From the NCBI GenBank assembly GCA_963805975.1, contig CAWDVR010000002.1, positions 992,001-1,056,000 of the forward strand: a stretch of 64,000 nucleotides of DNA, given 5' to 3'. A program made the translations under genes and the position numbers. Shown here one piece after another: positions 27,403 to 60,252 of the stretch. The DNA comes from an uncultured Acidobacteriota bacterium. Lineage in GTDB: Bacteria; Acidobacteriota; Thermoanaerobaculia; Multivoradales; SZUA-115. How positions within the stretch are numbered: the first letter of the stretch is position 1; each line of letters starts with the position of its first letter. The notes beneath the pieces are model-generated. The model made no database searches. It was not told where the DNA came from and was given only the letters and a program-made list of their open reading frames with translations.

Positions 27403-27723
27403 TCACTTGACGAAGATACTGATCACGCCCGAGGCGGCGAAGAGCAGGATCACGACCAGGGTGACCCAGTGGTCCACATTGGCGACCGTACCGCCGAAGG
27501 AGAACTTCTTGGCCGGCGGCTCGAACTCGATCTTGGGCAGGCTGGTGGCGCCGTTGACCCAGGCAAGCACCGAGGCGACGATGGCGGAGATGCCGAAGGG
27601 GATGAGGGCGATCTTCTTCGTCACCGCACCGACGATGATCATCGTCAGGCCGGCGGCGATGATGAGCACGAAGCCCAGCCAATTAGGGATCCAGGAGAGG
27701 AGGGTGGCGATGGCCTGCCGCAT
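27403..27723 (-). CDS. small membrane protein
   Basis: Three hydrophobic helices; AAAGGA SD upstream. Confidence 0.7.
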   Translation of the reverse strand: MRQAIATLLSWIPNWLGFVLIIAAGLTMIIVGAVTKKIALIPFGISAIVASVLAWVNGATSLPKIEFEPPAKKFSFGGTVANVDHWVTLVVILLFAASGVISIFVK

Positions 27724-27798
27724 GAGAGATTTCCTTTCGTTGTCGATCGCTAGATCGGGGTTGGGTTCACCTGGGTTGGGTGAGCTGGCGCACCGCCT

Positions 27799-27827
27799 GT
27801 TACAAATCGCGCCCGGGACCGCCTAAG
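27799..27827 (+). promoter_or_regulatory. CIS-associated promoter-like motif, copy 1
   Basis: GTTAC-N17-GCCTAAG, 13 nt before ATG 27841. Confidence 0.55.
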
Positions 27828-27840
27828 ACCTCGAGCCTCG

Positions 27841-28620
27841 ATGGACAAGCTGCGCACGCCCTTCTTCGTCATCGCCCTGGTGCTCGCCGCGCTCGCCGTG
27901 GCGAGCGAGGTGGGCTCGTGCGCGGTGGTGAAGAAGTCGCCGGTCTCGGCGGCCGACCTGCAATCGATCGTCGACGGCGCCGACCTGCCCGACGACGCCG
28001 AGCTCGATGGCGGCGACCTCGCCAAGCTGCGCCGCGAGAAGCCCTCGCCGCCCGGCCTCGGCATCCCGGCGCTCTGGGTGCTGGACCTCCTGGTGCTGTT
28101 CACCATGGGACTGATCGGCTCGGCGCTGCTGCTGCCGGACCGGATGCAGGGGCGGGTCCAGGGTTGCGCGACCCTGATCGTGTCTTTCCTGCTGCTCCTC
28201 GCCGGGATCCGGATCCTCTTCCTCGCCCTGGGCAAGCTCCTGATCATGCTCGCCCTGCTGCTCGCGGTGCCGTTCGGCACCATCGCCTACATGGCGATCT
28301 ACGGCTTCTTCAACAAGGGCGGCGCGGCGGCCGTGCTCTCGCTGCTGATGCTCCTGAAGATCGTGCTCGTGGTGCTGCTGATCCTCGCCCACCAGCGCTT
28401 CCTGCAGAACAAGGGGCTGGTGCTGATCCTCCTCTTCTCGCTCCTCGCCACCTGGCTGACCGGCTTCCTGCATGCCTTCGTGCCGGGGGTCCTGGCCTCG
28501 ATCACCGACGCCGTGGCGGCGATCGTCAACGGCTGCCTCGGTGCGGTGTGGGCGCTCCTCTTCCTGATCGGCTCGCTGGTCTCGATCTACAAAGTGCTGC
28601 GCATCGACCGGGCGACGTAA
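27841..28620 (+). CDS. polytopic membrane protein, probably CIS-associated
   Basis: About 7 hydrophobic segments; converges on the CIS operon and shares its upstream motif. Confidence 0.8.
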   Translation: MDKLRTPFFVIALVLAALAVASEVGSCAVVKKSPVSAADLQSIVDGADLPDDAELDGGDLAKLRREKPSPPGLGIPALWVLDLLVLFTMGLIGSALLLPDRMQGRVQGCATLIVSFLLLLAGIRILFLALGKLLIMLALLLAVPFGTIAYMAIYGFFNKGGAAAVLSLLMLLKIVLVVLLILAHQRFLQNKGLVLILLFSLLATWLTGFLHAFVPGVLASITDAVAAIVNGCLGAVWALLFLIGSLVSIYKVLRIDRAT

Positions 28621-28641
28621 TCGCCCCCCACCGGAAGCCCT

Positions 28642-28662
28642 GCCGGGGGCTCGAGCCCCGGC
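28642..28662. terminator. GC-rich hairpin between convergent genes
   Basis: GCCGGGG...CCCCGGC inverted repeat; no U tract. Confidence 0.4.
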
Positions 28663-28666
28663 GGAG

Positions 28667-29143
28667 CTACTTCAGCGCCACCCCACAGCTCTTGGTGCTC
28701 ACGCAGACCAGCGTCAGCACCGCCGCTCTCTTGGGCTGGTCGTCGTCGCGGAAAAGGTCGAGGGTGAGGGGGCGGCCGGGGCGGAGCTTGTCCGCCACGG
28801 GCACGGAGGCCGGCTGGTCGAGCACGACTTGCACGAGGTCGCCTTGCACCAGCTCGAAGCGCGCGCGGCGCACGCGGGCCTTCGCGGGCGGGATGCGCAC
28901 CGTGCAGGCACCGCCGGCGGGCAGGGTGAAGGTGGAGCCGGAGAGGCAGGAAGCCTCGACCTCGCGCGCGGTGAGGGTCTTCTTCTGGATCAGCGAGCGG
29001 CCCGCGTTCTTCATCCAAGCCGGCACCTTGGGTGGAGAAGAACGGGGGCCGTCCTTCCTCGTCTGCCCCCAGACCAAGACGACGGCGAAGAGCACCGCCA
29101 CCAGGACGAGCACCACGATCGCGATCTTCTGGTTACGTTCCAT
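28667..29143 (-). CDS. membrane-anchored hypothetical protein, last gene of CIS operon
   Basis: N-terminal TM (IAIVVLVLVAVLFAVVLVW), four Cys in beta-rich C-terminal domain. Confidence 0.75.
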   Translation of the reverse strand: MERNQKIAIVVLVLVAVLFAVVLVWGQTRKDGPRSSPPKVPAWMKNAGRSLIQKKTLTAREVEASCLSGSTFTLPAGGACTVRIPPAKARVRRARFELVQGDLVQVVLDQPASVPVADKLRPGRPLTLDLFRDDDQPKRAAVLTLVCVSTKSCGVALK

Positions 29144-30272
29144 GGCCGGATCGAGCCGGTCTGCGCGCGACATCGGGGCCCGCGGGTCGCGAAAAGTCGC
29201 TCACGCCTCCCGGGCGCGCTTGCCGGCTCGGCTGTGCGAACTGGTTCAAGAGCCCGGAGTCGATCTGCCAGCGCGTCCACTGGCAGTTGCCCTGCCGGCA
29301 GACCATCCCGGTGGGGCAGGGACGAGCGTCGAGCGGCGGGCAGCGGATGGGGTCCTTGCACAGTCCGCCGTCGCAGATGCCGGAGGCGCACTGCGCCGCG
29401 AACAGGCACTGGGCGCCGATCGCCAGCGTGGCGCACTGGCCTCCGCGGCAGGTGAGCGTCAGGCACTCACCGGGCACGCGGCACGCCTGGCCGGCCTCGC
29501 GCAGGCAGAGCTTCTGCGCCCCGACGCTCACGCACTTCTGGCCGGGCACGCAGTCCTTTTCGGATTTGCATGCGGCGCCCAGGCTGTCTTCCTGACAGGT
29601 CTTGTTGAGACAGAACAGGCCCGCGGCGCACTCGCCGCTGCACGCCTCGCCGAGGCTGGGGAGCGGCGGCTCTGAGCACACGCCTTCGACGCACGCCAGG
29701 CCCTCTTTGCACTCCGCCGTCTCGTTGCAGCCGGCGAAGTCCAGGTCGCCGCGGCAGGTCTTGGGCTCGCCGGTGCAGACCAGGCCGCTCTTGCAGTCGT
29801 CCTCGCACGGGTCGCCGAGGCCGGGGCCCTGGTTCATCAGCACCACGGCCGCGACCACGCCGCCGACGATCACCAAGCCGAGGAGGACGAAGAGGATCCA
29901 CCACGGGAACTTCTTCTTCGGCTTCTCGGTGGCGGGCACCTTGACCACTACCGACGGTCCCTCGGTCGAGTCCTCGTCCGGGTTGGCGGTCGAGGTGGCG
30001 TCGAGGCGGAAGCGGTAGCTCCCCGGCGGGGTGCCGGCCGGCACGTTGATCTTGACCTTGTACTGCTCGGTCACCCCGGGGAGGACGTTGCGCTCGCCGT
30101 CGTCTGCGGGTGTGAACCAGCGCGCCTCGGCGGGTGGCTCGGCCGCGGCACGCACCCGCACCTGGGCGGCGGTGAGCAGTTGATTGGTCACCGTGAAGGT
30201 GACGGTGCCGGTGGCGCCGGGAGCGAGGTCCACGGCGTCGGGCGAGGCGGTGATGGCGAATGCACGGCTCAT
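29133..30272 (-). CDS. bitopic protein: Ig-like domain, TM helix, Cys-rich repeats (CIS adaptor candidate 2)
   Basis: N-terminal beta-rich domain, KKKFPWW + TM, repeated GxxC..C..GxxC..C modules. Confidence 0.85.
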   Translation of the reverse strand: MSRAFAITASPDAVDLAPGATGTVTFTVTNQLLTAAQVRVRAAAEPPAEARWFTPADDGERNVLPGVTEQYKVKINVPAGTPPGSYRFRLDATSTANPDEDSTEGPSVVVKVPATEKPKKKFPWWILFVLLGLVIVGGVVAAVVLMNQGPGLGDPCEDDCKSGLVCTGEPKTCRGDLDFAGCNETAECKEGLACVEGVCSEPPLPSLGEACSGECAAGLFCLNKTCQEDSLGAACKSEKDCVPGQKCVSVGAQKLCLREAGQACRVPGECLTLTCRGGQCATLAIGAQCLFAAQCASGICDGGLCKDPIRCPPLDARPCPTGMVCRQGNCQWTRWQIDSGLLNQFAQPSRQARPGGVSDFSRPAGPDVARRPARSGHGT

Positions 30273-30326
30273 GAGCGGACCCTCTCTCTATCAGAATGTT
30301 CAACCGCAGGCGCAGGCTGCCTGCGT

Positions 30327-31787
30327 CTATTGGATCGTTCCTCCCAGCGGCTCCCAGGCCGACCAGCCGCCCTCGTACCCGAGATGCCAGAGCTGGTTGT
30401 CCGTGCTGCGGGCGAAGACGTCGATGCGGCCCGGGCCCCAGGAGACGGCGGCCGGGTCCGAGGTCAGCACGCCGCCGAGCGACTCCCAGTTCGACCAGCC
30501 ACCCTCGTACCACTTGTGCCAGAGCGCGTTGTCGCTGCTGCGCACGAACACGTCCAACCGGCCGGCGCTCCACGAGCAGACGGCCGGCCCCGAGGTCAGC
30601 ACGCCGCCGAGCGGCGCCCAGTTCGACCACGAGCCGTCATACGCGCGGTGCCAGAGGCCGTTGTCGAGGCCGCGGGCGAAGACGTCGAGCCGGCCGGGGC
30701 CCCAGGCGACGACGGCCGGGGCCGAGGTGATGGGGCCGGCAAACGGTGTCCACCCGGACCAGTTGCCATCGAACGCCTTGTGCCAGAGCTGGGTGTCCGC
30801 GCCGCGTACCAGGATGTCGAGCCGCCCGGGCGCCCACGAGGTGACCGCCGGGGCCGAGCCCAGGTTGCCGTCCAGGACCTCCCAGTCGTGCCAGACCCGG
30901 TCGTAAGCCTTGTGCTCGAGCTGCCCGCCCTTGCCGCGGATGAAGAGGTCGATGCGGCCGGGGCCCCAGCTCTCGGCCGAGGGGCCCGCCGTCACGGTGC
31001 CGCCCAGGCTCTCCCAGCCGGACCAGCCGCCGTCGTACCATTTGTGCCATACGGCCCGGTCGGTGCTGCGCACGAAGACGTCCAGCCGGCCGAGCGCCCA
31101 GGAGGAGACCCCGATCCACGCCGGCGAGGGCGCCTCGAAGGCGATCTCGGTCACGACGGGAGGCGGGGGTGGGGGCGGCGGCGGGGCCTCCGCGCAAACA
31201 CCCTCCTTGCAGACCAGGCCGTCCTTGCACTCGCCGTCCTCGGCGCAACCCTCGAAGCCCACGTCGCCGCGGCAGGTCTTGGGCTCGCCCGTGCAGACCA
31301 GGCCCTCGGCACACTCCTCCTCGCACTCGTCGAGGAGACCGGGCGTCCGATCCCGGAGCAGGAGGAAGGCGGTCGTGCCTCCCACGATCAGCAGCGCCAG
31401 GACGAGGATCAGGATCCACCAGGGGAACTTCTTCGCCGGCGCCGCGCCCTTCACCTGGAAAGCGACGGACGGGCCCTCGGTGAACTCCTCGTCCGGGTTG
31501 GCCTCGGACACGGCGTCGAGCCGCAGGCGGTAGCTGCCGGCGGGCGAGCCCGGCGGCGCCTTCACCTCGACCACGAACTGTTCGGTGGCACCGGCCGGGA
31601 GCAGGCGCTCCGGCCGCTCCGGCGGCCTGACCCAGGAAGCGGCGGCCGAGGGCTCGCCCACCACGCGGGCGCGGACCTTCGCCGACTCGTTGCCGGTGTT
31701 GGTGACGGTGTAGGTGACCCGGCCCTCACCACTCGCGGAAAGCTCGAGGCGCTCGGGCGAAGCGGTGACGGCAAACAGACGTTTCAT
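30327..31787 (-). CDS. bitopic protein: Ig-like domain, TM helix, Cys module, Pro linker, lectin-like beta-propeller (CIS adaptor candidate 1)
   Basis: Six ~44-aa repeats PAVxSWxxGRLDVFxRxxDxxLWHxxYDGxWSxWxxLGG, DUF346/PLL-lectin-like. Confidence 0.88.
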   Translation of the reverse strand: MKRLFAVTASPERLELSASGEGRVTYTVTNTGNESAKVRARVVGEPSAAASWVRPPERPERLLPAGATEQFVVEVKAPPGSPAGSYRLRLDAVSEANPDEEFTEGPSVAFQVKGAAPAKKFPWWILILVLALLIVGGTTAFLLLRDRTPGLLDECEEECAEGLVCTGEPKTCRGDVGFEGCAEDGECKDGLVCKEGVCAEAPPPPPPPPPVVTEIAFEAPSPAWIGVSSWALGRLDVFVRSTDRAVWHKWYDGGWSGWESLGGTVTAGPSAESWGPGRIDLFIRGKGGQLEHKAYDRVWHDWEVLDGNLGSAPAVTSWAPGRLDILVRGADTQLWHKAFDGNWSGWTPFAGPITSAPAVVAWGPGRLDVFARGLDNGLWHRAYDGSWSNWAPLGGVLTSGPAVCSWSAGRLDVFVRSSDNALWHKWYEGGWSNWESLGGVLTSDPAAVSWGPGRIDVFARSTDNQLWHLGYEGGWSAWEPLGGTIQ

Positions 31788-31807: not shown

Positions 31808-32416
31808 CTAGGCCGATCCGTTCCGGCGTCTGGCCTGCTTAGGCGGAGAAAGGGCGATTTCCGTTTCAAACGTCTCGTAGGCCGGCTTTTCGAGCTCCAC
31901 AATGCGGCGCACCAGCGGAAGCTGGGGCGCCGCCGCCGCGGGCACCAGCACCTTGAGATGGAAGGGCCGCGGGCGGCCATCCTGGCCGAGCACCTGCTCG
32001 TCGATGCCGAAGCCCTGGACCCCGGTGGCGGTCTCCAGGAAGAGCTTCAGTCCCTTGGCCGTTCCTCGCCAGCGGGAGAGATAGGCGGCGGCAGCCGTGA
32101 GCTCGCGCAGGCGCCCGATCTCGATCGTGTCGGTGAGCCGGCCGGAGCGATCCCTCTGCCGGCGGCCGGTGCCGGTGTGAGCCATGCCGGGGCGCTCCTC
32201 GAGCAGGCGGTCGAGGTCCAGCCAGCGTGCGAGGAGCGGCACGAAGGCGTCCGGGGTGCGGCGCGGGTCGAAGATCTCGTCGAGCCCCGCGAGCCGGCTC
32301 TCGGCCGGCTGGTGCAATGCCTCCATCGCCGCCAGCACGGCGGCGAGCGGGCTCGCGGGCTGCGCGCCGGCGCGGAAGACCGCCGGCAGCAGCCGTTCAA
32401 TGGCCTCGGCTCTCAT
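31808..32416 (-). CDS. phage tail protein I-like baseplate component
   Basis: LLPAVF, FDPRRTPDAFVPLLARWL, WRGTAKGL, IVELEKPAY. Confidence 0.85.
   Translation of the reverse strand: MRAEAIERLLPAVFRAGAQPASPLAAVLAAMEALHQPAESRLAGLDEIFDPRRTPDAFVPLLARWLDLDRLLEERPGMAHTGTGRRQRDRSGRLTDTIEIGRLRELTAAAAYLSRWRGTAKGLKLFLETATGVQGFGIDEQVLGQDGRPRPFHLKVLVPAAAAPQLPLVRRIVELEKPAYETFETEIALSPPKQARRRNGSA
31838..31867 (-). promoter_or_regulatory. CIS-associated promoter-like motif, copy 2
   Basis: GAAAC-N18-GCCTAAG inside the 3' end of the tail-I gene, 50 nt upstream of ATG 31787. Confidence 0.5.
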
Positions 32417-35006
32417 CTTCGCTCACCACTTCGATCTCGTGTGCGCCGGGGCAGAAGAGCCAGGTCGCCGGCAGGGTCACCTTGTCCGTGAACTCGCGGC
32501 TCGAGGCCGGCTCGTAGAGCGTACCGCCATTGCCGCTCCGCACCACGCCGACCGGCGTGCCCGCGAGCACCAGGCTGCCCCCGGGGAGCGCCGCCAGCGC
32601 GCGCACCGGGTAGAAGCGCCCGCGGTCGCGCATCGGCAGGTTGGAGCCCACCTCCGGCGACCACCACTCGGCGTCGCTCTTCGAGCCGTCGAGCCGCAGC
32701 ACGCCTGCCTGGTGGGTGGCGGCGAGCACCTGGCCGCCCTGGAAGGCCAGGGCATGGCAGCTCCCGCCCTTCCAGCCCTTGCCCTGGGGGCGCCAGGCCT
32801 CCGCGGCCTCGGCCGAGCCGCGCAGCTCGCGCACGAAGCAGCCGCGGCCCGTCTCGCTGCCGCCCTCGGCCGCGAGGCCGGCCCACAGGAAGAGGCGGGG
32901 CCCGTCCTCCTGCACGGCGAGCACGCGCACGTCCTCCCCATCGAGACCGATCTTCTGGAAGCTCTCCGCCCGGCCGCCCTGGGCCGAGAGGTAGACGCCT
33001 CCCGTCCGCTGCGCCGCCACCGCCACCTGCACGCCACCCCGCAGATCGGTGGCGGCGGCCACGGCGTAGAAGCCGAGGTCCGGCGAGCCCGGCGCCACCA
33101 GCACCTGGAGCGGGCTCGCTCCGGGCTTCTGCGCCAGCTCGTAGAGGCCCTTCTCGGTCGCCATCAACAGCATCGACACGCCTTCGCGCGTCACCCAGGC
33201 CAGGTCCTCCACCTGGAAGGCGAGGCGGGCGGCCGGCTGCCAGGTCTCGCCGCAGTCGAGCGACAGGTGGAGGCGCGTGCCGCCCTCGCCCTCGACGCGG
33301 GTCAGGACCGCGAGATGGCCGGGCCGTTCGGGGTGGGCGGCCACCTGCTCGACGGCCTCGCCCGCGAAGCGGCCGGCCGGCTCCCAGCCGTCGCCGTCGT
33401 TTCCCGAACGGTAGAGGAGAGAGCCGCAGCCGGCATACCAGGTCGAGCGCTGGAAGGAGTCGGCGGCGAGCGCGGTGACGTTGCCGGCGGGCACCTCGTC
33501 GACCAGCAGGCGCACCGAGTCCGCGTAGGCGACGCCGGGCTCGGCGAGGATCGCCTCGTAGACGTGCGAAGCGCGCAGCGCCTGGCCGAACGGCCAGCCC
33601 GGCGTGGCCCTCTCGCCGCCCCGCGGCAGCGGGCTCAGGGTGGCGTCGAGGCGCGCCAGGACCCGGTCGCGGACCGCGGCCGGGTTCTCCTGCCGGTAGA
33701 CCACCACGCGGCCCGCCACCTTGACGGTCTTGTAGCGCGCCCAGCTCACCAGGCAGGTGGTGGCGAGCGGGCGCCGCTCGTCGAGGGTGGCGAGGATCAC
33801 GGCGCGCACCTCCTCGCGCTCGAGCGCGGCGAGCCGCGCGGCATCGACCGCTCCTGCCGCCTCTCCTTCCCCCGTCTCCGGACCGCGCGGCAGCTCGGGC
33901 ACCAGCAGCACCTCGACCGTTCCCGGCTGCGCGTGCGCCCACAGCTCGGCCTTGGTGAACGCCTTGGCGCGCGCCACCCCGCCGGTCGCCGCCAGGGCCA
34001 GCAGCTCGAAGTCCCGCGCGGTCACCGCCCGCTCCAGGGTGTGGAGCTGCTGCGGGCCGCGCACCAGGGCGTTGTCCACGCTCTCGGCGTCGCGACCGCC
34101 GGCGGCGGGCCCGGCGTTGACCACCGTCAGGCCGGGGATCGGGTCCTTGAGCGCGGTCAGCGCGCCGGCCGCCACGTTGCCGACCCGGCCGCCGCCATGG
34201 CGGTACCAGAGGCGGATCTGGCAGTCGGCCGCCGGCACCTCGGCCAACGCCTCCGGCCGCTCGGAGAGCACGCCGTCGCCGCTCATCTGCCGCGCCGCCG
34301 GCGCGAAGGTGACCCGTCCGGAGACCCGGTCGGCGATGAACACGAAGCGGTCCGCGCCCAGGTTGGTGAAGCTCTCGACCTCGCGCCACACGCGGAAGGT
34401 GCGGCCCTCGAAGACCACCGCGGCGAGGCCGGCCTCGAGGTCTCCCCCCGGCTCCTCGATCCCCACCACCAGGTCGAGGCCGTCGCCGGTGGGCGCCACG
34501 ATGGGCAGCCGGCGGGCGGCCACGGTCTGGCCGGGAAGGCCGGTGCCGAGGCCCGCGAGCTCGCCGTCGACCAGCTCGCAGCCCAGCGCCATGACCGAGA
34601 CCGAGGTGGCGCCGGCAGCGATGGTCTCGGCGCGGACAGTGGTGAAGATGGGGCCGCCTCCCACGCCGCCGGCGCCGGCCGTCACCCGCGTGCCGCGCGG
34701 GATCTCGATCGCCTGCGGCGACGGCTTGGGCCGGCTGAAGGTGAGCTCGGCGACGGCGGGGGTCGGTGGCCGGAGCGTCACCCCCAACAACCGCAACAGC
34801 TCGACGTAGACCTTCTCCGGCACCCGGTTCAGCCGGTAGATCATGGTCTCGGTCAGAAAGGCGAAGAGCTCCAGCAGGACGGTGCCGGGGTCCGAGGCGG
34901 AGAGGTCGGTCCACTCGCGGCAGGTGGCGCCCGCGCGACGCCGGGCCAGCTCCACGAGCTGGGCGAAGGTGCGATCGTCGAGATTGGGGCTGGGCAGCGA
35001 CATCAC
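32397..35006 (-). CDS. baseplate J/gp6-like assembly protein with inserted beta-propeller
   Basis: LPSPNLDDRTF, WTD..ASDPG..LLELFA, YRLNRVP, RAVTARDFE; Asp-box-like repeats in the C-terminal third. Confidence 0.9.
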   Translation of the reverse strand: MMSLPSPNLDDRTFAQLVELARRRAGATCREWTDLSASDPGTVLLELFAFLTETMIYRLNRVPEKVYVELLRLLGVTLRPPTPAVAELTFSRPKPSPQAIEIPRGTRVTAGAGGVGGGPIFTTVRAETIAAGATSVSVMALGCELVDGELAGLGTGLPGQTVAARRLPIVAPTGDGLDLVVGIEEPGGDLEAGLAAVVFEGRTFRVWREVESFTNLGADRFVFIADRVSGRVTFAPAARQMSGDGVLSERPEALAEVPAADCQIRLWYRHGGGRVGNVAAGALTALKDPIPGLTVVNAGPAAGGRDAESVDNALVRGPQQLHTLERAVTARDFELLALAATGGVARAKAFTKAELWAHAQPGTVEVLLVPELPRGPETGEGEAAGAVDAARLAALEREEVRAVILATLDERRPLATTCLVSWARYKTVKVAGRVVVYRQENPAAVRDRVLARLDATLSPLPRGGERATPGWPFGQALRASHVYEAILAEPGVAYADSVRLLVDEVPAGNVTALAADSFQRSTWYAGCGSLLYRSGNDGDGWEPAGRFAGEAVEQVAAHPERPGHLAVLTRVEGEGGTRLHLSLDCGETWQPAARLAFQVEDLAWVTREGVSMLLMATEKGLYELAQKPGASPLQVLVAPGSPDLGFYAVAAATDLRGGVQVAVAAQRTGGVYLSAQGGRAESFQKIGLDGEDVRVLAVQEDGPRLFLWAGLAAEGGSETGRGCFVRELRGSAEAAEAWRPQGKGWKGGSCHALAFQGGQVLAATHQAGVLRLDGSKSDAEWWSPEVGSNLPMRDRGRFYPVRALAALPGGSLVLAGTPVGVVRSGNGGTLYEPASSREFTDKVTLPATWLFCPGAHEIEVVSEDESRGH

Positions 35007-35440
35007 GGCCTCTCTGCGTAGAGCATCAACGGATAGGTGAGCGTTCCCACGGCCAAGAGGCTCTTCACCCGGTACTCGAGCGTGATGTCGAGCCGGCCGG
35101 GATGCGAGGGGTTGGGGTCGGCGTCGAGGTGCAGGATCTCGACCCGCGGCTCCCAGCGCTCGACGGCGCGGCGCACGTAGTGGATGGCGAGGCCCGCGGT
35201 GGTGGCGTCGTTGGGGGCGAAGACCAGGCGGTGGAGCTCGCAGCCGTAGGTGGGCCGCATCACGCGCTCCCCCGGCACCGTCGACAGGAGGAGCAGCAGC
35301 GCCTGGCGCACGGCCGGCTCGCCCTCGACCATCTCGACGCCGCGCGGCCCGATGTCGAGCCCGCTCTCCTCGGCGGGGGACTCGAGGTCCGGCAGCAGGA
35401 AGCGCCAGGCGCGCCAGCGGGGCGAAGAGGTGAGCCTCAC
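35003..35440 (-). CDS. GPW/gp25 baseplate wedge protein
   Basis: LLSTVPGERVMRPTYGC, RWEPRV; GTG start overlaps upstream stop. Confidence 0.92.
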   Translation of the reverse strand: MRLTSSPRWRAWRFLLPDLESPAEESGLDIGPRGVEMVEGEPAVRQALLLLLSTVPGERVMRPTYGCELHRLVFAPNDATTAGLAIHYVRRAVERWEPRVEILHLDADPNPSHPGRLDITLEYRVKSLLAVGTLTYPLMLYAERP

Positions 35441-35778
35441 GGCGACTCCCCCACCAGCTCCTGGCCGGGATGGCGCACCTTGTACTCGACGATGCCGGGC
35501 GGCGTGCCGTCGGTGAGGCCGCGCACCGTGTCCAGACAGATGCGCTTGCCCTCGATGCGCAGCAGGTCCGAGTAGCCCTCTTTCACCGGCAGCGTGGTGG
35601 TGCAGGGCTTGATCGCGATGCCGATGTTGGGGCAGCCGACGATCGGCCGGCCCTCGGGGTTGACCGACACCAGCACGCGGCGGCGCTCGACCGTCACCAG
35701 CTCCTGCGTAGGCTCGATCTGGATCACCCCCTGCTCGTGGGTGCAGACCAGCCGCGCGTCCTCGGTCAGCCAGCGCAT
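35437..35778 (-). CDS. PAAR-like spike tip protein
   Basis: 113 aa, CTH..GCP..PC pattern, position between VgrG and gp25. Confidence 0.7.
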   Translation of the reverse strand: MRWLTEDARLVCTHEQGVIQIEPTQELVTVERRRVLVSVNPEGRPIVGCPNIGIAIKPCTTTLPVKEGYSDLLRIEGKRICLDTVRGLTDGTPPGIVEYKVRHPGQELVGESP

Positions 35779-35781
35779 CGC

Positions 35782-37296
35782 TCAAGCCCGCTCGAAGTCG
35801 ATCGAGGCGCCGCGCACCACGATCGGCTGGCCCGGCGCCTCGAGGGTCAAGGGCGTCGCGGCGTGGAGGGTCAGCTTCTCGGGCCCCAGCTCGAGGAAGC
35901 TGCCGTTGGTGGTCTGGACCTTGACGCTCCGCGCCGCGTCGTCGAGGGAGAAGCGATGGCCGCCGGGAGTGCGCAGGACGAAGCGCCGCACGGCGCCCTC
36001 CTCCACCGCCGCCTCGGGCAGCCCCTGGGAGCCGTAGAGCCCGCCCACCACCACGCCGCGGGCGGGGTCGCCGTGGGTGAAGATCACCAGCACGCGGTCC
36101 CCCACCTCGGGGAGGGCCAGCAGACCCTTGCCGGCGCCGGCCGCCAGGCAGACGACGTTGATCCACTCGGTCTCGAGCTCGCCGTAGACCGGCAGCGAGA
36201 CCTTGACGCGGCCCCAGCCCTCGGGGTCGTCCACCCGCGTCACCACCGCCCAGGCGGCGACCCCCTCGCGCCGCCGTGGCGGCGGCAGGGGTGGGACGGT
36301 GGTGATCTCCGAGACGTAGCCGGCCTCGGCGTCGATGCGGTGCTCCACCCCGGTCAGCACGTAGCGGCCGGTGAAGGGTGCCGCCACGCCCGCCACCGTG
36401 ACCCGCGTGCCGGGCCGCAGCGCCGGGTTCCCCTCGGCGACGCCGGTGAGCACCACCTCCGCCGCGCTCAGGCGGTCGAGCTCGGCCTGCGCCAGGCCCT
36501 CGGCCTCGGCAGCGGACGTGGCGCGGCCGTCGGTCAGGCTGCGCTCGCCGCTCCCGCCGAGCGCGGCGGGCGGCGCCTCGGCCGCCACCGCGCGGCCCAC
36601 GCGCGGCGAGCGCGCCTCGCCCACCGCCGCCTCGGCCCGCCAGGGGTCCCAGCCCGCCGCCTTGACCGTGCGGCAGCAGGGGTCGCCGTTGGCCTCGAGG
36701 CGCGCTTCGAGGAGCGTCCGGCCCAGCTCCAGCGCCACGCTCTCGCCGATGCCCTCCAACGTCAGGAGGTGGAGCGCCCCGTCGCGCAGCACCGGGTAGA
36801 GGCCCGCCGCCGCCGTCTCCTCCACCAGCAGCTCGAGGTCCGACTGGCCGTGCTGCAGCACCCGCTCCTTCGCCGGGCCGTCTGCCGCGGCCTCGACCGC
36901 GAGGCCGAGGTCCGCCACCAGCTCGCGGGCCAGCTCCGCCGCGGTGGAGCGCACGTGGGCGCGCAGCGGCTGGCGCTTGCGGAGGCGATGCAGCAGGTCG
37001 TAGCCGCGCACCGAGAGCTCCACCCCGCGGTCGCCGCCGTAGGCCAGCTCCACCGCCGTCACCTCGCCATCGAAGAGCGGCGGCGCGACACCCGCGAGCG
37101 CCAGCCGCAGCCGAGATCCCGGCTTCACCGGCAGCTCGGCACCGGGCTCGGCGTCGAAGAACACCAGCTCGGCCTGCGCCGGCAAACCCAGCTTCTGCGC
37201 CACCCGCGCCTCGCCCAGGGCGCGGGCCAGCGGCTCGGCGAGCGGCGCGCCATCCACCTCGACGACCAGCGGCGGCAGGGCGCGCACCGGCCTCAC
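35782..37296 (-). CDS. VgrG-like hub/spike (late control D + baseplate V)
   Basis: QHGQSDLE, GNPALRPG, DPEGWGRVKV, LPEVGDRVLVIF.HGD; GTG start overlaps upstream stop. Confidence 0.92.
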   Translation of the reverse strand: MRPVRALPPLVVEVDGAPLAEPLARALGEARVAQKLGLPAQAELVFFDAEPGAELPVKPGSRLRLALAGVAPPLFDGEVTAVELAYGGDRGVELSVRGYDLLHRLRKRQPLRAHVRSTAAELARELVADLGLAVEAAADGPAKERVLQHGQSDLELLVEETAAAGLYPVLRDGALHLLTLEGIGESVALELGRTLLEARLEANGDPCCRTVKAAGWDPWRAEAAVGEARSPRVGRAVAAEAPPAALGGSGERSLTDGRATSAAEAEGLAQAELDRLSAAEVVLTGVAEGNPALRPGTRVTVAGVAAPFTGRYVLTGVEHRIDAEAGYVSEITTVPPLPPPRRREGVAAWAVVTRVDDPEGWGRVKVSLPVYGELETEWINVVCLAAGAGKGLLALPEVGDRVLVIFTHGDPARGVVVGGLYGSQGLPEAAVEEGAVRRFVLRTPGGHRFSLDDAARSVKVQTTNGSFLELGPEKLTLHAATPLTLEAPGQPIVVRGASIDFERA

Positions 37297-38054
37297 GAGC
37301 CGCTCCCGAGCCCGAGGCGAGAGGGCACTTCGAGCAGCCGGTGGGAGGCGAGGCGGAGCGGATCGGTCACCCGGTTGGCGATCGCCAGCAGGCGCCACCA
37401 GGCGGCGTCGCCGAAGAAGCGCTCGGCGAGCTGATCCAGCCGCTCGCCGGGGTCGTCCCCTGCTTCACCGATCACGTAGTGGAGGCGTGTCTCGGGGGCG
37501 GCGCCCACCGGGGCTCCCGCCTGGGTGCCCGCTGCGACCGCGGCCTCGGCAGCGGCCAGCACTTCCGGCGGTGGCGGGGGGGCCGGTGCGGGGGGGCGGT
37601 CCTCCACCCGCAGCAGGCGCAGCCGCAGCCAGGAGCGGCCGGGTGCGCCGCTCCCCGAGAAGCGTTCCAGCCGCTCGGCGACCGCCGCCACCACCCCCGG
37701 CACGTTCCACGCCTTGCCCCACACGAAGCGCACCTGCGGCGGACGGCCGTAGCCCTCGCCGTCGGTCGCGTTCTCCGCCAGCTCGACCAGCGGCCGGGTG
37801 AGCTGCCGGACGTCGTCGGTGGCGATCGAGGAGCCGGCGAGCGCGACGTCGAACAGCAGGTCGAGCGAGAGCTGGGTCCGGCCGCCGCCGGTGTAGAGCA
37901 GCGCGTCGTCGCCCATCCCGGCACCGGTCAGCCGGCCGACGGTGGAGCTCCGCGGGCGCACCCCGGCCTGGCGCTCGAGCACCAGGCTCTCCGGGTTGAG
38001 CAGGCAGGTGAGCCGCTCGCCGCTGCCTTCGAGGAGGAAGGCTACGCGCTCCAC
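37293..38054 (-). CDS. CIS tube initiator with LysM-like C-terminus (Afp7-like)
   Basis: LNPESL, LLFD, PPQVRFVWG, GERLDQLAERFFGDAAWWRLLAIAN.V.DP. Confidence 0.85.
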   Translation of the reverse strand: MERVAFLLEGSGERLTCLLNPESLVLERQAGVRPRSSTVGRLTGAGMGDDALLYTGGGRTQLSLDLLFDVALAGSSIATDDVRQLTRPLVELAENATDGEGYGRPPQVRFVWGKAWNVPGVVAAVAERLERFSGSGAPGRSWLRLRLLRVEDRPPAPAPPPPPEVLAAAEAAVAAGTQAGAPVGAAPETRLHYVIGEAGDDPGERLDQLAERFFGDAAWWRLLAIANRVTDPLRLASHRLLEVPSRLGLGSGS

Positions 38055-39249
38055 GGCAGGCCTCTCTGCTCGTGCTCGAGCCGGCGGCGGTGCTCCAGGC
38101 GGCGGGCTTCGAGGCGCAGGTTGACGGCCTCCGCCTCGGGCGCGGTGGGCAGAGAGGGCCAGAGCCCCTCACCCCAGCCCTCTCCCCCCTGCGGGGGGCG
38201 AGGGGGCCAGAGAGAGACCGTGGACTCCACCAGTGGCGCGCGCTCGAGCGTGGCGATGGGAAACGACGACTCTTGATCGGGCGACACCACCTCCTCCACC
38301 CCTGCACCCTCTGGCCCCCTCTCCCCGCGACGCGGGGAGAGGGTAGGGGTGAGGGGCGCTGCCGCCAGCGACTGTGCCCGAACCTCCTCACCCCGGCCCT
38401 CTTCCCCCCGCAGGGGGCGAGGGAGCCGGAATGGGAGGGGAGGCTCGGCACTGCGCCTCGCGCCGGCGGCCCGAATCGCCGAGGCCAGTTGGAAGCTCGG
38501 CAGAAGCCGCCTCGAGCCTCGGCGTCCTCCGTCCGCCTCACCCCGCGTGGCGGAGAAAGGGATGGGCTGAGGGGTGCCGCCTCACGCGGCTGCGCCCGCA
38601 ACCCCTCTCCCCGGCCTTCTCCTCCCTCCGCGGGGCGAGGGAGGCAGAGCGGGAGAGGTAGCTCCACCGTGGCCTCGCGCTCGAATGTCCTGGCGCGCCG
38701 AGGGAAGTCCTGGTTTCTGGAAGGCTCTTCTCTGGCCTCGACGCCCTGGGGCCGCTTCGCCCGAATCTCTCTACCCCAGCCCTCTTCCTCTTGCGGGGAC
38801 CGAGAGGGACGGAGCGGGAACGGAGCCTCCGCCTCGCTCTCAGACTGCACGGACCGCCGAGGGAGGTCGTGGTACCGGGAGAGCGGCGGGGAAGGGACTG
38901 GAGCGAGGGGCGGTGCCGCGGCCGCTCGCGCCCGAACCCCCTCACCCCGGTTCTCTCTCTGCGGCGGGCGAGGGGGCCGGAGGGGAAGCGGAGAGGAGAT
39001 GGGCGTCCGCGGTCGCGCGGTCGAGACCTGGCCGCCAGGAGACAGACCGTCCCGCCCCGGGACGAGGTCCGGCCGCGCGCGGCGCACGTCTTCCAGCCAG
39101 TGCGACGGCGGCCCACCGTGGGGCGGCGCGACGGTGGGCCGTTCTTCGGCGCCGCGCTCCGCGGCCTGGGGGCGCGCCTCTCCCTCGAGAGCGCGCGCCC
39201 AGCGGGCGAACAGGCGTGCGAGCCAGCGCCGGCGGGACCTGGCTGCCAT
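38042..39249 (-). CDS. low-complexity CIS hypothetical protein built from palindromic repeats; one frameshift near 38500-38540
   Basis: Recurring PRP..GEGxGEG peptide continues in a shifted frame to the 85-aa C-terminal ORF; span of 1208 nt is not a multiple of 3. Confidence 0.65.
38164..38980. repeat. cluster of about 8 degenerate CCCTCACCC..CCCTCTCCC..GGG palindromes, both orientations
   Basis: Copies near 38164, 38313, 38384, 38536, 38601, 38766, 38874, 38937; same family as 20975. Confidence 0.75.
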
Positions 39250-39255
39250 CTCGTC

Positions 39256-39741
39256 CTACCCGCGTTCCAGGTAGTTGAAGGTCAGCTCCATCTCCTCGAT
39301 GGCGGCCTTGTTGCCGAGCGCGTCGAGCGGCGTGCCGCGCCACGCGCAGGGCCAGGCCTCGTACAGGTTCCAGCGCGTCACCTCCTGGTCGCTGCCCTCG
39401 GTGTCGAGCAGCAGGATGGAGACGTTCTTGCGCTCGACCTTGCCCGCGGCGACCTCCATGAACCAGTCCCACAGCAGGCGCGAGGTGGTCATGCCCCAAC
39501 GCAGCGTCAGGTTGTCGTAGACGATCTTGCCCGGCAGGCGGTGGACGACGCGCCCGGCCCCGCCTTCGCGGAACTGGATCGCTTCGACGCGCGCGCCGAG
39601 CCCGGAGCACTCGGTGAAGTAACCCTCCACCTGGCCCTGGAACTCGAGGCGGAAGTTGTACGCGCGCCACGGGTCGACGTAGGTTCCCGGCTGCGCCGGG
39701 GACGGTTGACTCGCGGGCGGCTGAGCAGCGGCTTCCGGCAT
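39256..39741 (-). CDS. CIS tail tube protein (T4 gp19-like)
   Basis: DPWRAYNF, FTECSGL, FREGG, LPG, LTLRWG, RWNLYEAWP, AIEEMEL. Confidence 0.95.
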   Translation of the reverse strand: MPEAAAQPPASQPSPAQPGTYVDPWRAYNFRLEFQGQVEGYFTECSGLGARVEAIQFREGGAGRVVHRLPGKIVYDNLTLRWGMTTSRLLWDWFMEVAAGKVERKNVSILLLDTEGSDQEVTRWNLYEAWPCAWRGTPLDALGNKAAIEEMELTFNYLERG

Positions 39742-39744
39742 GGC

Positions 39745-40989
39745 TTACCCTCCTTCGCTTTCGATCGCGGCGCCGGCGGCGGTTTGACCGATCTGGAAAA
39801 TGACGAACTCGGCGGGCTTGACCGGGGCGAGGCCGATGCGCGTCACCACGCGCCCCTGGTCGATGGACTCGGGCGGATTGGTCTCTTCGTTGCACATCAC
39901 GAAGAAGGCCTGCTCGGGGCTCGAGCCCATCAGGGCACCGTCGCGCCAGAGCTGCAGCAGGAAGGCCCGCACGTCGCGCTCGATGCTCTTCCACAGCGAG
40001 CGGTCGTTGGGTTCGAACACCACCCAGCGGGTGCTCTTGGCGATCGACTCCTCCACCATGTTGAACAGGCGCCGCACGTTGAGATACCGCCACTCGCTCG
40101 ACGGGTCGGCCAGCGTGCGCGCACCCCAGACGCGGAAGCCCTCGCGCTGGAAGAAGCGCAGGCAGTTGACGCCGTTGTCGTTCAGCGCGCCCTGCTCGGC
40201 GTTGGTCAGCCGATAGGTGAGGTTGAGCGCGCCGTTGATCACCTCGTTGGCCGGCGCCTTGTGCACGCCGCGGTTGCCGTCCACCCGCGCGTAGATGCCG
40301 GCCAGATGGCCCGAGGGCGGGCAGTTGACCAGCCGCGTCGGGGCGAGCGGGTCCGCGACCGTGATCCACGGGAAGTAGAAGGCGCCGAAACCGCGGTCCG
40401 ACTGCCGGGGCCTGAGGCCCGCGGCGGGCGGCGCGGGTGCGGGCTCCGCAACGCCTTCCTCCGCACCTTCACGGCGCGTGCGCCGTGAAGTGGGGGCTGC
40501 CGGCGCCGCGCCCACCTCTTTCAGGCGGTCGATGTTCTCCACCTCCTCGGGCGCGTCGAGCACCGCCACGCGGTCCTCCATGCGCTCGCAGTGGGTGAGC
40601 ACCGCGTCGTAGGAAGCGGTGTCCGAGTAGCCCGGCGCGGCGACGATCGCCACCTCGTCGATCGCCTCGAGCAGGTCGAGCCCTTTCTTCTTGTTGCCGC
40701 TGCCGGTGAGCGCGCCGCCTTCGCCGACGTTGACCACGTAGCACCTTTGGCCGCCGTTCAAAAAGAAGCCGAAGACCGCGTGCGCGAGCGGCGTGGCCTC
40801 CGTGGCATCGCCGCAGAACTCGCGGCGGAACTGCTCGCGGTTGTTGATCGCGACCGCCTCGTCGAGATGCGCGCCGGAGAGCGGCGGCACCCCCACGAAG
40901 GCGGCCGTCGAGGTGCCTACGGCCTGGATCGGGCGCGCGCCGCTCGACACCTCCTGGATGTAGACGCCCGGGGTCGAGTAATTGGGCAT
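39745..40989 (-). CDS. CIS contractile tail sheath protein
   Basis: TPGVYIQEV, FFLNGG, YFPW, PPSGH, GVHKAPAN, WGARTL, VFEPN, APVKPAEFVIF. Confidence 0.95.
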   Translation of the reverse strand: MPNYSTPGVYIQEVSSGARPIQAVGTSTAAFVGVPPLSGAHLDEAVAINNREQFRREFCGDATEATPLAHAVFGFFLNGGQRCYVVNVGEGGALTGSGNKKKGLDLLEAIDEVAIVAAPGYSDTASYDAVLTHCERMEDRVAVLDAPEEVENIDRLKEVGAAPAAPTSRRTRREGAEEGVAEPAPAPPAAGLRPRQSDRGFGAFYFPWITVADPLAPTRLVNCPPSGHLAGIYARVDGNRGVHKAPANEVINGALNLTYRLTNAEQGALNDNGVNCLRFFQREGFRVWGARTLADPSSEWRYLNVRRLFNMVEESIAKSTRWVVFEPNDRSLWKSIERDVRAFLLQLWRDGALMGSSPEQAFFVMCNEETNPPESIDQGRVVTRIGLAPVKPAEFVIFQIGQTAAGAAIESEGG

Positions 40990-40991
40990 TG

Positions 40992-41663
40992 CTATTCCTC
41001 CTCGATCGGTTGAAAGTGAACGGTGAGCGGCTGTCGCTGGTTCCCGGCCGCGACGGCGAGCGTGCGGCCCTTGGCGTGGACGGTGAGCGGGCTCGGGCCC
41101 GCGGGCACGGCCGCGAAGTGGAAGCGGCCGTCGAGATCCGTGCGGGTGGCCTTGCCGCCGGCCGCGAGCTCGACCCTGGCGCCGGCGATCGGCACGCCGC
41201 CAGGCCCCAGCACCTGGCCCGAGAGCGAGGAGATCGGCTCGACGGAGATCTCGAGCGGCAGGCGAACCAGCGGCGCCAGCTTGAGCGGCCGCTCGCGGCG
41301 CGCCGGCAGCTTGAGCAGGAACGACGGCCGCGGCCGGGCCCCGAGCGCCCGCCACAGCTCGAGCGGCGGCGGCTCGAGCTCCACCTCGAGCCCCGGCGTC
41401 TCGAGCGCCGCGAAGGCGAGGTCGGCCAGCAGGCGGTGGGCCGAGGCCGGCTCGTCGCCCCAGGTGGAGACCAGGTATCGCAACAGGAGCTGAGAGAGCG
41501 GGCGGGCGGGATCGCGCGGCGGCGGGACCGGCGCGAGGTCCAGCAGATAGACGCTGACGCCGGCACCGGCCGCGTCGTCCGCGGGCGGCGCGAAGCTGAC
41601 CTCGACCTTGCCGGCGACGTTGCCGGCCCACTCGGCCAGGCGGGCATCGATCTGCTCGATCAC
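40992..41663 (-). CDS. Pvc16/DUF4255-like cap protein with C-terminal carboxypeptidase-regulatory-like domain
   Basis: VSFAPP..VSVYLLDL, LRYLVSTW, LWRALG...RPS; C-terminal GQVLGPGGVPIAGARV..TDLDGRFHF. Confidence 0.75.
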   Translation of the reverse strand: MIEQIDARLAEWAGNVAGKVEVSFAPPADDAAGAGVSVYLLDLAPVPPPRDPARPLSQLLLRYLVSTWGDEPASAHRLLADLAFAALETPGLEVELEPPPLELWRALGARPRPSFLLKLPARRERPLKLAPLVRLPLEISVEPISSLSGQVLGPGGVPIAGARVELAAGGKATRTDLDGRFHFAAVPAGPSPLTVHAKGRTLAVAAGNQRQPLTVHFQPIEEE

Positions 41664-42839: not shown

Positions 42840-42938
42840 GCCAGACTAGAACCGGATTTCGCTTCCTTTAGGCTTCCACCGCCAGAGGACGCGGCTATTT
42901 GGCTGTGGGCTGCGCGACCGGGACGGCTGCCGAACTCC

Positions 42939-43757
42939 ATGCTTCACGCCGAAGTCAACGGCATCCGCCTCTGGTACGAGACCGCCGGCACGGGCGGCAC
43001 GCCCGTGGTGCTGGTGATGGGGCTCGGGTTTCCCGGCACCGCGTGGCGGCCGCAGGTGGCGGTGCTCGCCGAGCACCATCGCGTGGTGTTCTTCGACCAC
43101 CGTGGCATCGGCCGCTCCGGGCCGGCGCGTGGCATCCATCGCATGGAGACCCTGGCCGCCGACACGCTCGGCCTGATGGATCACCTCGGTTGGGAAAGGG
43201 CCCACCTCGCCGGCATCTCGATGGGCGGGCTGGTGGCGCTCGAGGCGGCGCTCACGGCTCGCGATCGGTTGCAGAGCCTCAGCCTGATCTCGAGCTACGC
43301 CGGCGGCGGCCTCAACTGGTTCCCCTGCCGGCAAGCGTGGCGCTGGATACCGCAGACGGTGCTGACTCGCGGCCGGCGGCGCATGGAGGCGCTCCAGAAC
43401 CAGCTCTTCTCCCGCGAGTACCTGGCGGGAGTCGATCGCGAGGTGCTCAGCCGCGAGATGGCCAAGAGCCTCGCGGCGATCGCTCCCCTCTCGACCCTCC
43501 TCGGCCAGATGGGCGGCCTGCTCCTCTACGACGCCCGCCCCAGGCTCTCCATGCTCCAAGACCTGCCGACGCTCATCGTCCAGGCCGGCCGCGACGTGAT
43601 GATCCCCTGCCGCAAGGGCGAAGAGCTGAAACGCCTGCTGCCCTGCGCGAGGCTCGTCACCTTCCCCGGCGCGGGGCATGGCGTAACGCTGGAAAAGACG
43701 GACGAGGTCAACCGGCTGCTTCTGGAGCACTTCCGGGAGGCGGAGACGCGGAAGTAG
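42939..43757 (+). CDS. alpha/beta hydrolase
   Basis: DHRGIGRS, GISMGG, GRD, GAGH. Confidence 0.9.
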   Translation: MLHAEVNGIRLWYETAGTGGTPVVLVMGLGFPGTAWRPQVAVLAEHHRVVFFDHRGIGRSGPARGIHRMETLAADTLGLMDHLGWERAHLAGISMGGLVALEAALTARDRLQSLSLISSYAGGGLNWFPCRQAWRWIPQTVLTRGRRRMEALQNQLFSREYLAGVDREVLSREMAKSLAAIAPLSTLLGQMGGLLLYDARPRLSMLQDLPTLIVQAGRDVMIPCRKGEELKRLLPCARLVTFPGAGHGVTLEKTDEVNRLLLEHFREAETRK

Positions 43758-43774
43758 GCGGCTACGTCGTGGCT

Positions 43775-46700: not shown

Positions 46701-46976
46701 CGCCAGCTCCTCTTCGAGCGGCAGCACCACCTTCTGCATCACCTCTTCCGCCGGCGCGTCGCGCCACGGCACGTCGACGCCGAGCGAGGGGCTGGTATAT
46801 CCCCGCGGGAACATCTCGAGCGGGATGCCGATCGTGGCCACCAGGCCGACCACCAGCACGGTCGCGGCCAGCATCAGCACGGTGATGCGCCGCTCGAGCG
46901 AGAAGCGCGGCAGGAAGAGCTCCGCCGCAGTGAGCGAGGGAAGCCTCGCGGGCTCGGGGACAGGGCCTTCGCTCAC
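43775..46976 (-). CDS. RND efflux permease (AcrB family), one frameshift at 44072-44074
   Basis: VGMLVDNSIVVAENI, GVVVNNGIVLIDY; one extra G in TGGGAG separates RFRPIMMTALTT C-terminus. Confidence 0.9.
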
Positions 46977-49900: not shown

Positions 49901-50596
49901 CCCTTCCTTGATCGTGCCGCCGGCGACGTTGACGTTCTCCTGCGCCAGCCGCGTGGCCACGGTCTCGACCGCGAGGCCGCTCCTGCGCAGCTTGTCCTCG
50001 TCGATCGCCACCAGGATCTCTTCCTCGAGGCCGCCGCGCACCCGTACCGCCGCCACTCCCTTGATCGGCTCGAGAGCGCGCTTCACCTCGCGATCGGCGA
50101 GGCGGCGCAGGCGCCGCAGGCCCTCCTCGCCCGCGAAACGGTCGCCGCTGCCGGCGAGCGACAGCTCCATCACCGGGTCGAGCGAGGGGTCGTAGCGCAG
50201 GATCAGCGGCCGCTCGGCCTCGTCGGGGAGAAAGACCAGGTCGAGCTTCTCGAGCGTGTCCTGCGCCGCCTCGGACATGTCCGTGTCCCAGGCCAGCTCG
50301 AGCACCACGTCCGAGACCCCGGCGCGGCTCACGCTCGAGATGCGGGAGAGGCCGCCGATCACCCCCAGGGCCTCTTCGAGCGGCCGGCTGATGTCGTTCT
50401 CGACCTCCTCGGGCGCGGCGCCGGGGTACTCCGTGCGGACGGTGAGCGTGGGGTAGGACAGCTCCGGCATCAGCGCCACCGGGAGCTGCTGCAGCGAGAA
50501 CCAGCCGAAGACGACGGTGGCGACGGTCACCACCAGCACCGCTACCGGCCGGCCGGTGACGAAGCTCGCGGGGCGGGGCGGCGCCGCCTCAGGCAC
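46973..50596 (-). CDS. RND efflux permease (AcrB family)
   Basis: YPGAAPEEVE, GMLVDASIVVIE, GIVVDNAIVLVD, RFRPILMTTLTT. Confidence 0.93.
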   Translation of the reverse strand: MPEAAPPRPASFVTGRPVAVLVVTVATVVFGWFSLQQLPVALMPELSYPTLTVRTEYPGAAPEEVENDISRPLEEALGVIGGLSRISSVSRAGVSDVVLELAWDTDMSEAAQDTLEKLDLVFLPDEAERPLILRYDPSLDPVMELSLAGSGDRFAGEEGLRRLRRLADREVKRALEPIKGVAAVRVRGGLEEEILVAIDEDKLRRSGLAVETVATRLAQENVNVAGGTIKEGRTEYMVRTLNEYMDLGEIRDTVVASTGGREVRLRDLAQVSWSHEEQQMLTRTEGGVSVQVDVFKEADANIVDLASRVKERLGKLDPAAEAARDTGTAPAPKRGWGPGGSGPGGEEPAGLATELYRSEGATLAVVADRSLFIESSIDEVKSSAIEGAILAVLVLILFLRNAWTTLIVAVSIPVSLLISFAPLQLAGTSLNIMSLGGLALGVGMLVDASIVVIESIFRCREEGDDVVAAAERGIREVRAAVISTVLTTIAVFFPMVFVEGIAGQAFGDLGLAVTVSLLASMVVAIYLVPMLASRRGLELPAGGARPGPVLARRSLFRLGSVAALRQDMAGLGRWVKPAGAGGGRRLAPLRLLAVPFAGLYLALRLVLGLVLEVLAKLALALVLGLLWLARGAYGLARAAALAVGRRVAALRTPGESAAGAERAGMARLREGYERSVRWAVGHPAAMAGVVVVMFALSIAIGSGLDSELLPEVHQGELTFEVALPVGTPLAETEAALAPVERAILAERQHIRALILTVGFDPETSRTSDEGEHTARFKLLLDSSEPQVEQAVVERVRRRLAAVPDASVRVVRPVLFSFKTPIEVEIYGDDLARLKRTTDEVREVMAGLPELADVESTLKTGAPEVEIVYDRDLLARYGLNIRQVALEIRNQVKGTEATRFNLKDRRIPVVVRLGEADRETVADVEDLIVNPGAERPIPLSAVAEVKLAEGPSEVRRIDGRRVAVVGANLSHGLGPGGSLGGAVAAIEREVSQRIDWPADMTFLIAGQNEEWERSRGSLILALALSIFLVYVIMAAQFESLLQPLVILFTIPLALFGTVLTLQVLGLSVSIVVFLGAILLVGIVVDNAIVLVDYINVLRQRGYALEEAIVTAGTVRFRPILMTTLTTVLGLVPMALGLGDGAEIRRPMAIAVISGMVSSTALTLLIIPSLYALVERAKARVLGRRTSLEPGPAGPPPAEIAAAVREPAR

Positions 50597-60242: not shown

Positions 60243-60252
60243 GCGGTTTCCA

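Follow-up and report, generated by a model that had tools for sequence, protein, structure and literature searches.

Paired Ig-domain membrane proteins beside an acidobacterial contractile injection system locus: candidate docking adaptors

Introduction

How cytoplasmic contractile injection systems (CIS) that lack fibers are attached to the membrane and made to fire is a standing question, and it is raised in concrete form by the window analyzed here (the whole stretch of 64,000 nucleotides, positions 992,001 to 1,056,000 of contig CAWDVR010000002.1, from an uncultured Acidobacteriota bacterium). In its CIS locus the wedge gene Cis12 is followed by two adjoining paralogues, designated A and B, each of which encodes an immunoglobulin (Ig)-like domain, one transmembrane (TM) helix and an outer region of its own kind. 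What might such proteins do for the machine beside which they are encoded? We regard it as an even call that A and B would be inserted in the membrane as adaptors at which a cytoplasmic CIS docks by way of the shared Ig domain; their family offers a concrete candidate for this task in diderms and monoderms.

Results

Two paralogues with a common inner half

Residues 1–201 of A and B (coordinates in Table 1), which comprise the Ig-like domain, the TM helix and a Cys module, align with 110/201 identities (55%; BLASTP, E 3e-65), and beyond them the proteins continue into Cys repeats in A and six lectin-like repeats in B. An earlier sequence-only reading of the window had described just this arrangement of a shared inner half with swapped outer halves; the motifs that it quoted are all present in both paralogues, as is the near-identical stretch of DNA (41/42 nt matching at 29745–29786 and 31263–31304), whereas the Pro-rich junction that it placed between the halves is pronounced in B, where it is poly-Pro, but only weakly developed in A. 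The source genome holds no Ig-domain copies other than A and B. Over a 14-codon core A and B agree at 95% of nucleotides, against 76% for B and its orthologue in a Thermoanaerobaculia locus (L003), while in the Ig domain B and that orthologue are identical at 93/112 residues and A and B at 57/112. Because the core is thus closer between A and B, and the Ig domain overall shows the reverse, this small sample suggests that the core is a short gene-conversion tract.

A single TM helix is apparent in each protein (19-residue Kyte-Doolittle value 3.09 at residue 126 in A and 2.77 at residue 125 in B), and a hydrophobic N-terminal signal was not found in either. All 28 Cys of A lie C-terminal of the helix, and B has 8 Cys within the shared module and 1 within its repeats. 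We infer an N-in/C-out topology, as had been proposed; the positive-inside bias is weak in B (KK before the helix, two Arg after it).

The N-domain is predicted to be a single Ig-like beta-sandwich (AF2 pLDDT 88) with conserved N30, W52, R61 and a loop NPDE.F.EGP. Its sequence gave 0 matches in the PDB at E ≤ 1. Foldseek matches are 4kkp/RbmA, CsuC, SafB, DraB, SfaE and 7sqc, and in VIA the best Z of 11.1 (9i1y, rmsd 2.5, 108 residues aligned) is tied among many Ig folds; therefore the fold alone gives no function. The best ESM Atlas match (0.88, in a Myxococcota cluster) is a lead only.

The outer half of B consists of 44-residue Trp-rich repeats beginning at residue 220, visible in the DNA as a 132-nt period, in which the Trp residues are retained. 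Their homology to PLL/PHL lectins is borne out by phmmer against the PDB (8 sequences, E 2.6e-92 to 9.6e-67). The PLL/PHL lectins, described in PMC6943638 as having seven blades and binding fucose and O-methylated sugars, share the W-motif repeats with B; those of Photorhabdus are soluble and seven-bladed, whereas B is membrane-tethered and has six repeats. For the outer half of A only a match to DUF7107 below threshold was obtained (E 0.2), and 28 Cys are also found in several myxobacterial homologues of A.

One inner half, many outer domains

A genome scan for the Ig-TM family, based on the best 80 of 100 confirmed matches, gave 74 loci in Acidobacteriota, Myxococcota, Chloroflexota, Actinomycetota, Proteobacteria, Planctomycetota and others, and the family profile matches 2148 representatives of 50% clusters at E ≤ 1e-10. 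The loci hold one copy in 45 cases, two in 21, three in 5, four in 2 and five in 1. C-terminal regions are essentially unrelated in 40/52 complete within-locus pairs, median Ig identity is 68% within loci versus 37% between them, and the nearest Ig domain belongs to the same locus for 22/64. A Pfam family was matched in 72/113 locus C-regions (PASTA 34, LamG 15, PD40 4, DUF346, tectonin, PAN and EB/DUF7107 3 each, Kelch and PKD 2 each, with single matches to Big, PG_binding_1, FG-GAP and thioredoxin and some weak ones) and in 71 of the 131 further representatives scanned (52 with PASTA), which are those left of 148 new ones once short and oversize proteins were dropped. CBM96 and B-lectin also occur among the outer-domain families. 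This catalogue, in which one N-half is joined to PASTA, LamG, lectin, Ig or Cys-rich outer domains, agrees with the modularity proposed earlier.

The membrane signature extends across the family: a TM helix follows the Ig domain in 114/115 and 145/145 homologues of two sets, Cys number 14 per 14,717 residues before the helix versus 596 per 26,033 after it, and Lys plus Arg are more numerous before than after the helix in 75 proteins, equal in 27 and fewer in 12 (n = 114). In one homologue, P0116, a TIR domain precedes the Ig domain and the TM helix lies at the extreme end, an order consistent with a cytoplasmic Ig domain, though it may itself be a fusion artefact. A search for Ig-domain fusions among proteins of 665–2000 aa found none, yet it failed to recover long members already known, P0243 among them.

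Linkage to a distinctive CIS subtype

CIS core genes are visible at 44/74 loci. Where a Cis12 match is present, the family gene starts no more than 300 bp after it in 35/43 loci and within 800 bp in 42/43, and at 43/43 Cis11 carries a beta-propeller, which in the window is predicted with pLDDT 89 and has GH74/BNR-type propellers as its best structural matches. For 31 further loci (L055 and the 30 at which core genes are not visible), 25 of the 26 genomes that carry them hold a propeller-Cis11. Among 201 Chloroflexota genomes the same 3, one of them the center genome, have both the domain and the propeller; among 201 Myxococcia genomes the domain is in 33, the propeller in 25 and both in 21; strong matches in 301 Actinomycetes genomes number 2, both beside Cis12 and propeller; and in 301 genomes of its own phylum the source genome is the sole match to a single-protein query. 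These linkage counts carry no statistic, as related genomes are not independent. The family is widespread and CIS-linked, on a broader scale than was seen in the earlier reading, and does not occur mainly outside CIS loci.

The window locus is IId-like by gene content (single Afp11, contiguous VgrG, Tail_P2_I). No fiber or tape-measure family was matched in it, and a query that does find the ATPase of a Streptomyces control locus detected no Afp15-type ATPase in the window, in any of the 74 loci or in 8 extended regions. Judged by its genes, the host CIS stands apart as a IId-like variant, with a propeller in Cis11, no locus ATPase, no CisA and two extra conserved membrane genes. A description of the propeller-Cis11 subtype was not found in the full-text literature searched, although papers outside Creative Commons licensing and further supplements might hold one. 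Archangium violaceum Cb vi76, listed as eCIS-negative (eCIS, extracellular CIS) by Geller 2021 (PMC8213781), carries a locus of this type (L049).

Comparison with known systems

The nearest precedent, overlooked by the sequence-only reading, is Sco4256-4258 of the Streptomyces coelicolor type IId CIS, published as lumen effectors (PMC10066040, PMC10020575). Like A and B these proteins, labeled 'hydrolytic protein' and annotated COG1470, are CIS-linked tandem paralogues with a constant PapD/RbmA-like Ig N-terminus, one TM helix and a variable lectin-type C-terminus, and the Foldseek matches of the A/B Ig domain overlap their published HHpred list. They differ in having two Ig domains (1-215) and a TM helix at 219-250, against one Ig domain and a helix near residue 125 in A and B, and in lying upstream of the sheath in Streptomyces, against after Cis12. 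The comparison was made with a Sco4256-type stand-in family chosen by name, position and architecture rather than by the Sco4256 sequence, and reached through weak 'hydrolytic protein' matches. Its first Ig domain matches the A/B domain at HH 98.1% (E 6.5e-14), the members having been preselected by a match to the A/B profile, and its second at 37.7% only; on the Sco4256-type hidden Markov model the A and B domains score 41.4 and 40.5 bits, the maximum of 28 controls being 33.5. Specific kinship with Sco4256 Ig1 is not distinguishable here from general Ig similarity: a control set of ordinary Ig domains, chosen likewise, scores just as high (98.5%), and the A/B-type and Sco4256-type domains form separate groups in a tree that does not join them. 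At the level of profiles, the A/B domain and Sco4256 Ig1 are members of a shared superfamily.

A Chloroflexota IId locus that lacks the propeller has two Sco4256-type two-Ig/TM genes directly after Cis12 (L128:4450-7730). Roseiflexus, which PMC12998442 describes as without close CisA homologues, has four two-Ig genes of this type. Together these genes let synteny add weight to the kinship with Sco4256. In terms of predicted architecture, A and B are a one-Ig variant of a CIS-linked plan of constant N-terminus, TM helix and variable C-terminus, placed in a distinctive CIS subtype.

CisA (SCO4242), a bitopic protein with an unstructured N-terminus that is predicted to bind Cis11 and is needed for firing (PMC12237407), resembles A and B in the N-in/C-out orientation predicted for them, in the place of its gene right after the wedge genes and in belonging to a fiber-less CIS; its N-terminus is unstructured and its C-domain conserved, the reverse of A and B. 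The CisA kinship that had been put forward for checking was not borne out: a Streptomyces CisA-like gene (a 469-aa open reading frame after Cis12 with a TM helix at 297, identified from its slot, its length and the place of its TM helix) is matched neither in the window nor in the related loci, and with opposite domain conservation as well, A and B were rejected as CisA homologues.

The slot after the wedge genes, which the CisA-like gene occupies in the Streptomyces locus, holds fibers in ~90% of eCIS (PMC12923769), and the eCIS tail fibers eBAP1-5 share with the present family a constant N-anchor, variable binding domains, this slot and up to five copies per locus. They are soluble trimeric fibers, from which their descriptions set apart the A/B type, a 115-aa Ig domain with a TM helix. 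The main text of that catalogue uses 'transmembrane' 0 times and 'PASTA' 0 times, and 4 of its 5 supplements, as searched, give no text match to Archangium, Hyalangium or Ktedonobacter (PMC12923769). DUF6519 was not matched in the Pfam scan. A comparable plan is known from type VI secretion systems (T6SS), whose TssL/TagL anchors combine a cytoplasmic baseplate-binding domain, a TM helix and optionally a peptidoglycan-binding domain. Their folds are unrelated to A and B, and the T6SS membrane complex is not in this locus.

Discussion

A role as docking adaptors and its alternatives

As docking adaptors, A and B would be anchored in the inner membrane of the cell that makes them, with the Ig domain on the inner side, where it would bind a wedge protein (Cis12, or Cis11 by its propeller) and so take the part attributed to CisA. 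On the other side the outer domain would hold on to glycans of the envelope, presumably peptidoglycan for PASTA and PG_binding, whereas fucose or methylated sugars are the likely ligands of B; the outer region of A might instead act as a disulfide-braced stalk. Duplication and domain swapping would give several docking sites for one machine. The nearest relative among the best 80 of 100 matches is a Thermoanaerobaculia metagenome-assembled genome, which makes a diderm host probable and would place the outer domains in the periplasm; the 'signals' of the sequence-only reading would then be envelope or periplasmic ligands and not the surfaces of other cells. That ligand binding would also trigger contraction is the weakest step, possible but doubtful. 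The widest form of the proposal, an uncatalogued and widespread CIS subtype (propeller in Cis11, neither ATPase nor fibers nor CisA) docked and triggered by plug-in membrane receptors that read the envelope of their own cell by means of exchangeable glycan-binding domains, with the Sco4256-type 'effectors' likewise receptors, seems to us rather unlikely; if true, the Sco4256-type proteins of Streptomyces and Chloroflexota would be receptors and not injected toxins.

The docking reading draws on the slot after Cis12, the CIS linkage across the family, the membrane-protein signature, outer domains among which Pfam shows no toxin family, the two further conserved membrane genes, and the negative searches for an Afp15-type ATPase and for a CisA homologue. 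Several observations weigh against docking. Sco4256-4258 proved toxic to E. coli, and ~85% of tubes were empty once the genes had been deleted (PMC10066040), and Sco4256 co-purified with particles (PMC10020575); therefore the published data support cargo for the Sco4256 family. Many copies of the present family are orphans away from a CIS locus, and in Myxococcia 12/33 domain genomes lack a propeller-Cis11 and 4/25 propeller genomes lack the domain; the exceptions inspected (2 of the 12 and 2 of the 4) look like CIS remnants, and another Baseplate_J gene is present in 4/5 domain-only genomes checked. The positive-inside bias is moderate in the second set of homologues (77 versus 31 of 145). 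The outer regions without a Pfam match (41/113 and 60/131, together 101/244) may hide activities.

While the earlier interpretation is sound in its modularity, CIS linkage and lectin homology, a real rival to it is that A and B are cargo effectors as published for Sco4256-4258, the Ig domain serving as loading signal, the ejected protein inserting its TM helix and the lectin providing targeting. The same architecture and paralogue pattern, the Ig1 profile match with its bit scores above the controls and the two-Ig genes after Cis12 in Chloroflexota speak for it, and yet the generic-Ig profile matches equally, toxin, nuclease and peptidase families are absent from the 244 regions or proteins scanned with Pfam, and the toxicity in E. 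coli is likewise reported for CisA, a membrane protein that is not cargo. The Afp15-type ATPase, which has a role in cargo loading, was not found in the locus, and disulfide-rich and PASTA outer domains imply normal export. On balance we consider cargo unlikely. Co-inherited envelope proteins (adhesins, decoys, immunity proteins, or a complex with the neighboring 168-aa and 259-aa proteins) making no direct baseplate contact would account for the frequent orphan copies, for the gene persisting beside a cap gene in remnants without baseplate and for the conserved accessory membrane genes; the fixed slot after Cis12 across many phyla and the conservation of the surface-type loop NPDE.F.EGP suggest instead a conserved cytoplasmic partner, and we judge such proteins distinctly unlikely. 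Very improbable, in our view, are fiber substitutes on released particles, with the Ig domain anchored to gpI and the lectin binding target cells: the tail-fiber slot, the 1-5 copies per locus and the lectin tips recall eBAP fibers, but a strongly hydrophobic TM helix separates anchor from tip in essentially all members, there is no shaft, the fold is unlike the descriptions of eBAP1-5, and Cys-rich tips would presumably stay unoxidised in the cytoplasm.

The docking reading has the merit of a small folded domain with two or three plausible partners, which makes it directly testable, and cultured carriers of the family exist in Archangium, Ktedonobacter and Caulobacter. The family puts the effector label of Sco4256-4258 in question, and a docking or trigger protein of modular build would offer a means of re-programming when a CIS fires.

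The surrounding locus and other observations

On the strand of A and B the order of genes before B is cap, sheath, tube, low-complexity gene, Cis7, VgrG, 113-aa gene, gp25, Cis11 and Cis12 (Table 1). The Cis11 propeller could serve as a platform for docking or bind glycans itself. The three small membrane genes at 27403-29173 belong to no known family; two of them, for the 168-aa and the 259-aa protein, are conserved in the locus, and their products may associate in a membrane complex. Apparent fusions of Cis12 in GC-rich loci were dismissed, being overlaps in other frames.

Table 1. Features of the CIS locus and its flanks (positions in the window)
Feature	Position	Strand	Remarks
Paralogue A, 379 aa	29133..30272	-	Same Ig domain as B; TM ~126-144; 28-Cys outer region 156-330, about seven 4-Cys modules
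Paralogue B, 486 aa	30327..31787	-	Ig-like 1-112; TM ~125-143; 8-Cys module 155-198; poly-Pro hinge; six PLL-like lectin repeats 220-483
Ig-like (NEW3/PapD-N/MSP-type) N-domain of B	31452..31787	-	Predicted; AF2 pLDDT 88; Foldseek and VIA; conservation
Six 44-aa repeats of B homologous to PLL/PHL beta-propeller lectins (DUF346)	30339..31130	-	phmmer vs PDB; Pfam
106-aa 3-TM protein	27403..27723	-	Present in 4/74 related loci
Conserved 259-aa multi-TM accessory protein	27841..28620	+	No Pfam family; homologues in 34/74 loci
Conserved 168-aa single-TM accessory protein	28667..29173	-	Homologues in 39/74 loci
Cis12/gpI-like wedge protein (Tail_P2_I)	31808..32416	-	Without fiber extension
Cis11/Baseplate J with BNR/GH74-like beta-propeller	32397..35006	-	Propeller in C-terminal part, residues ~506-835
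gp25-like wedge protein	35003..35410	-	
113-aa conserved gene, PAAR/spike-tip position	35437..35778	-	PAAR-like label from position only, no family match
VgrG-like spike	35782..37398	-	Single open reading frame
Cis7-like (CIS_tube domain)	37293..38054	-	
Conserved low-complexity Pro/Arg-rich gene	38057..39249	-	N- and C-terminal motifs in different frames here
Tube (gp19-like)	39256..39741	-	
Sheath	39745..40989	-	
Cis16/Pvc16 cap fused to CarboxypepD_reg	40992..41663	-	

The low-complexity gene in the gap between tube and Cis7 (270-530 aa across loci) has the motif PPxHWLxxV in 16/29 loci and RRLxxEQRGxxW in 20/29, and is a candidate tape-measure, lumen cargo or payload; the copy in the window contains palindromic repeats, with 54 motif matches genome-wide. 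Myxobacterial remnants (L124:7997-10666, L125:7140-9685, L126, L127) retain only a cap and an Ig-TM gene, or tube, Cis11 and Cis12 without sheath or spike. A second, canonical eCIS lies elsewhere in the source genome (G000:C3:889665-919601), with an AAA ATPase, two DUF4157 genes, large baseplate genes and a probable fiber gene, and four more DUF4157 genes are found at other places in that genome. Elsewhere in the window (42846-51566 and 57787-63959) lie two AcrB-family genes, one HlyD gene and the heme-biosynthesis genes HemN-like, UroD, ALAD and HemC/D, all ordinary.

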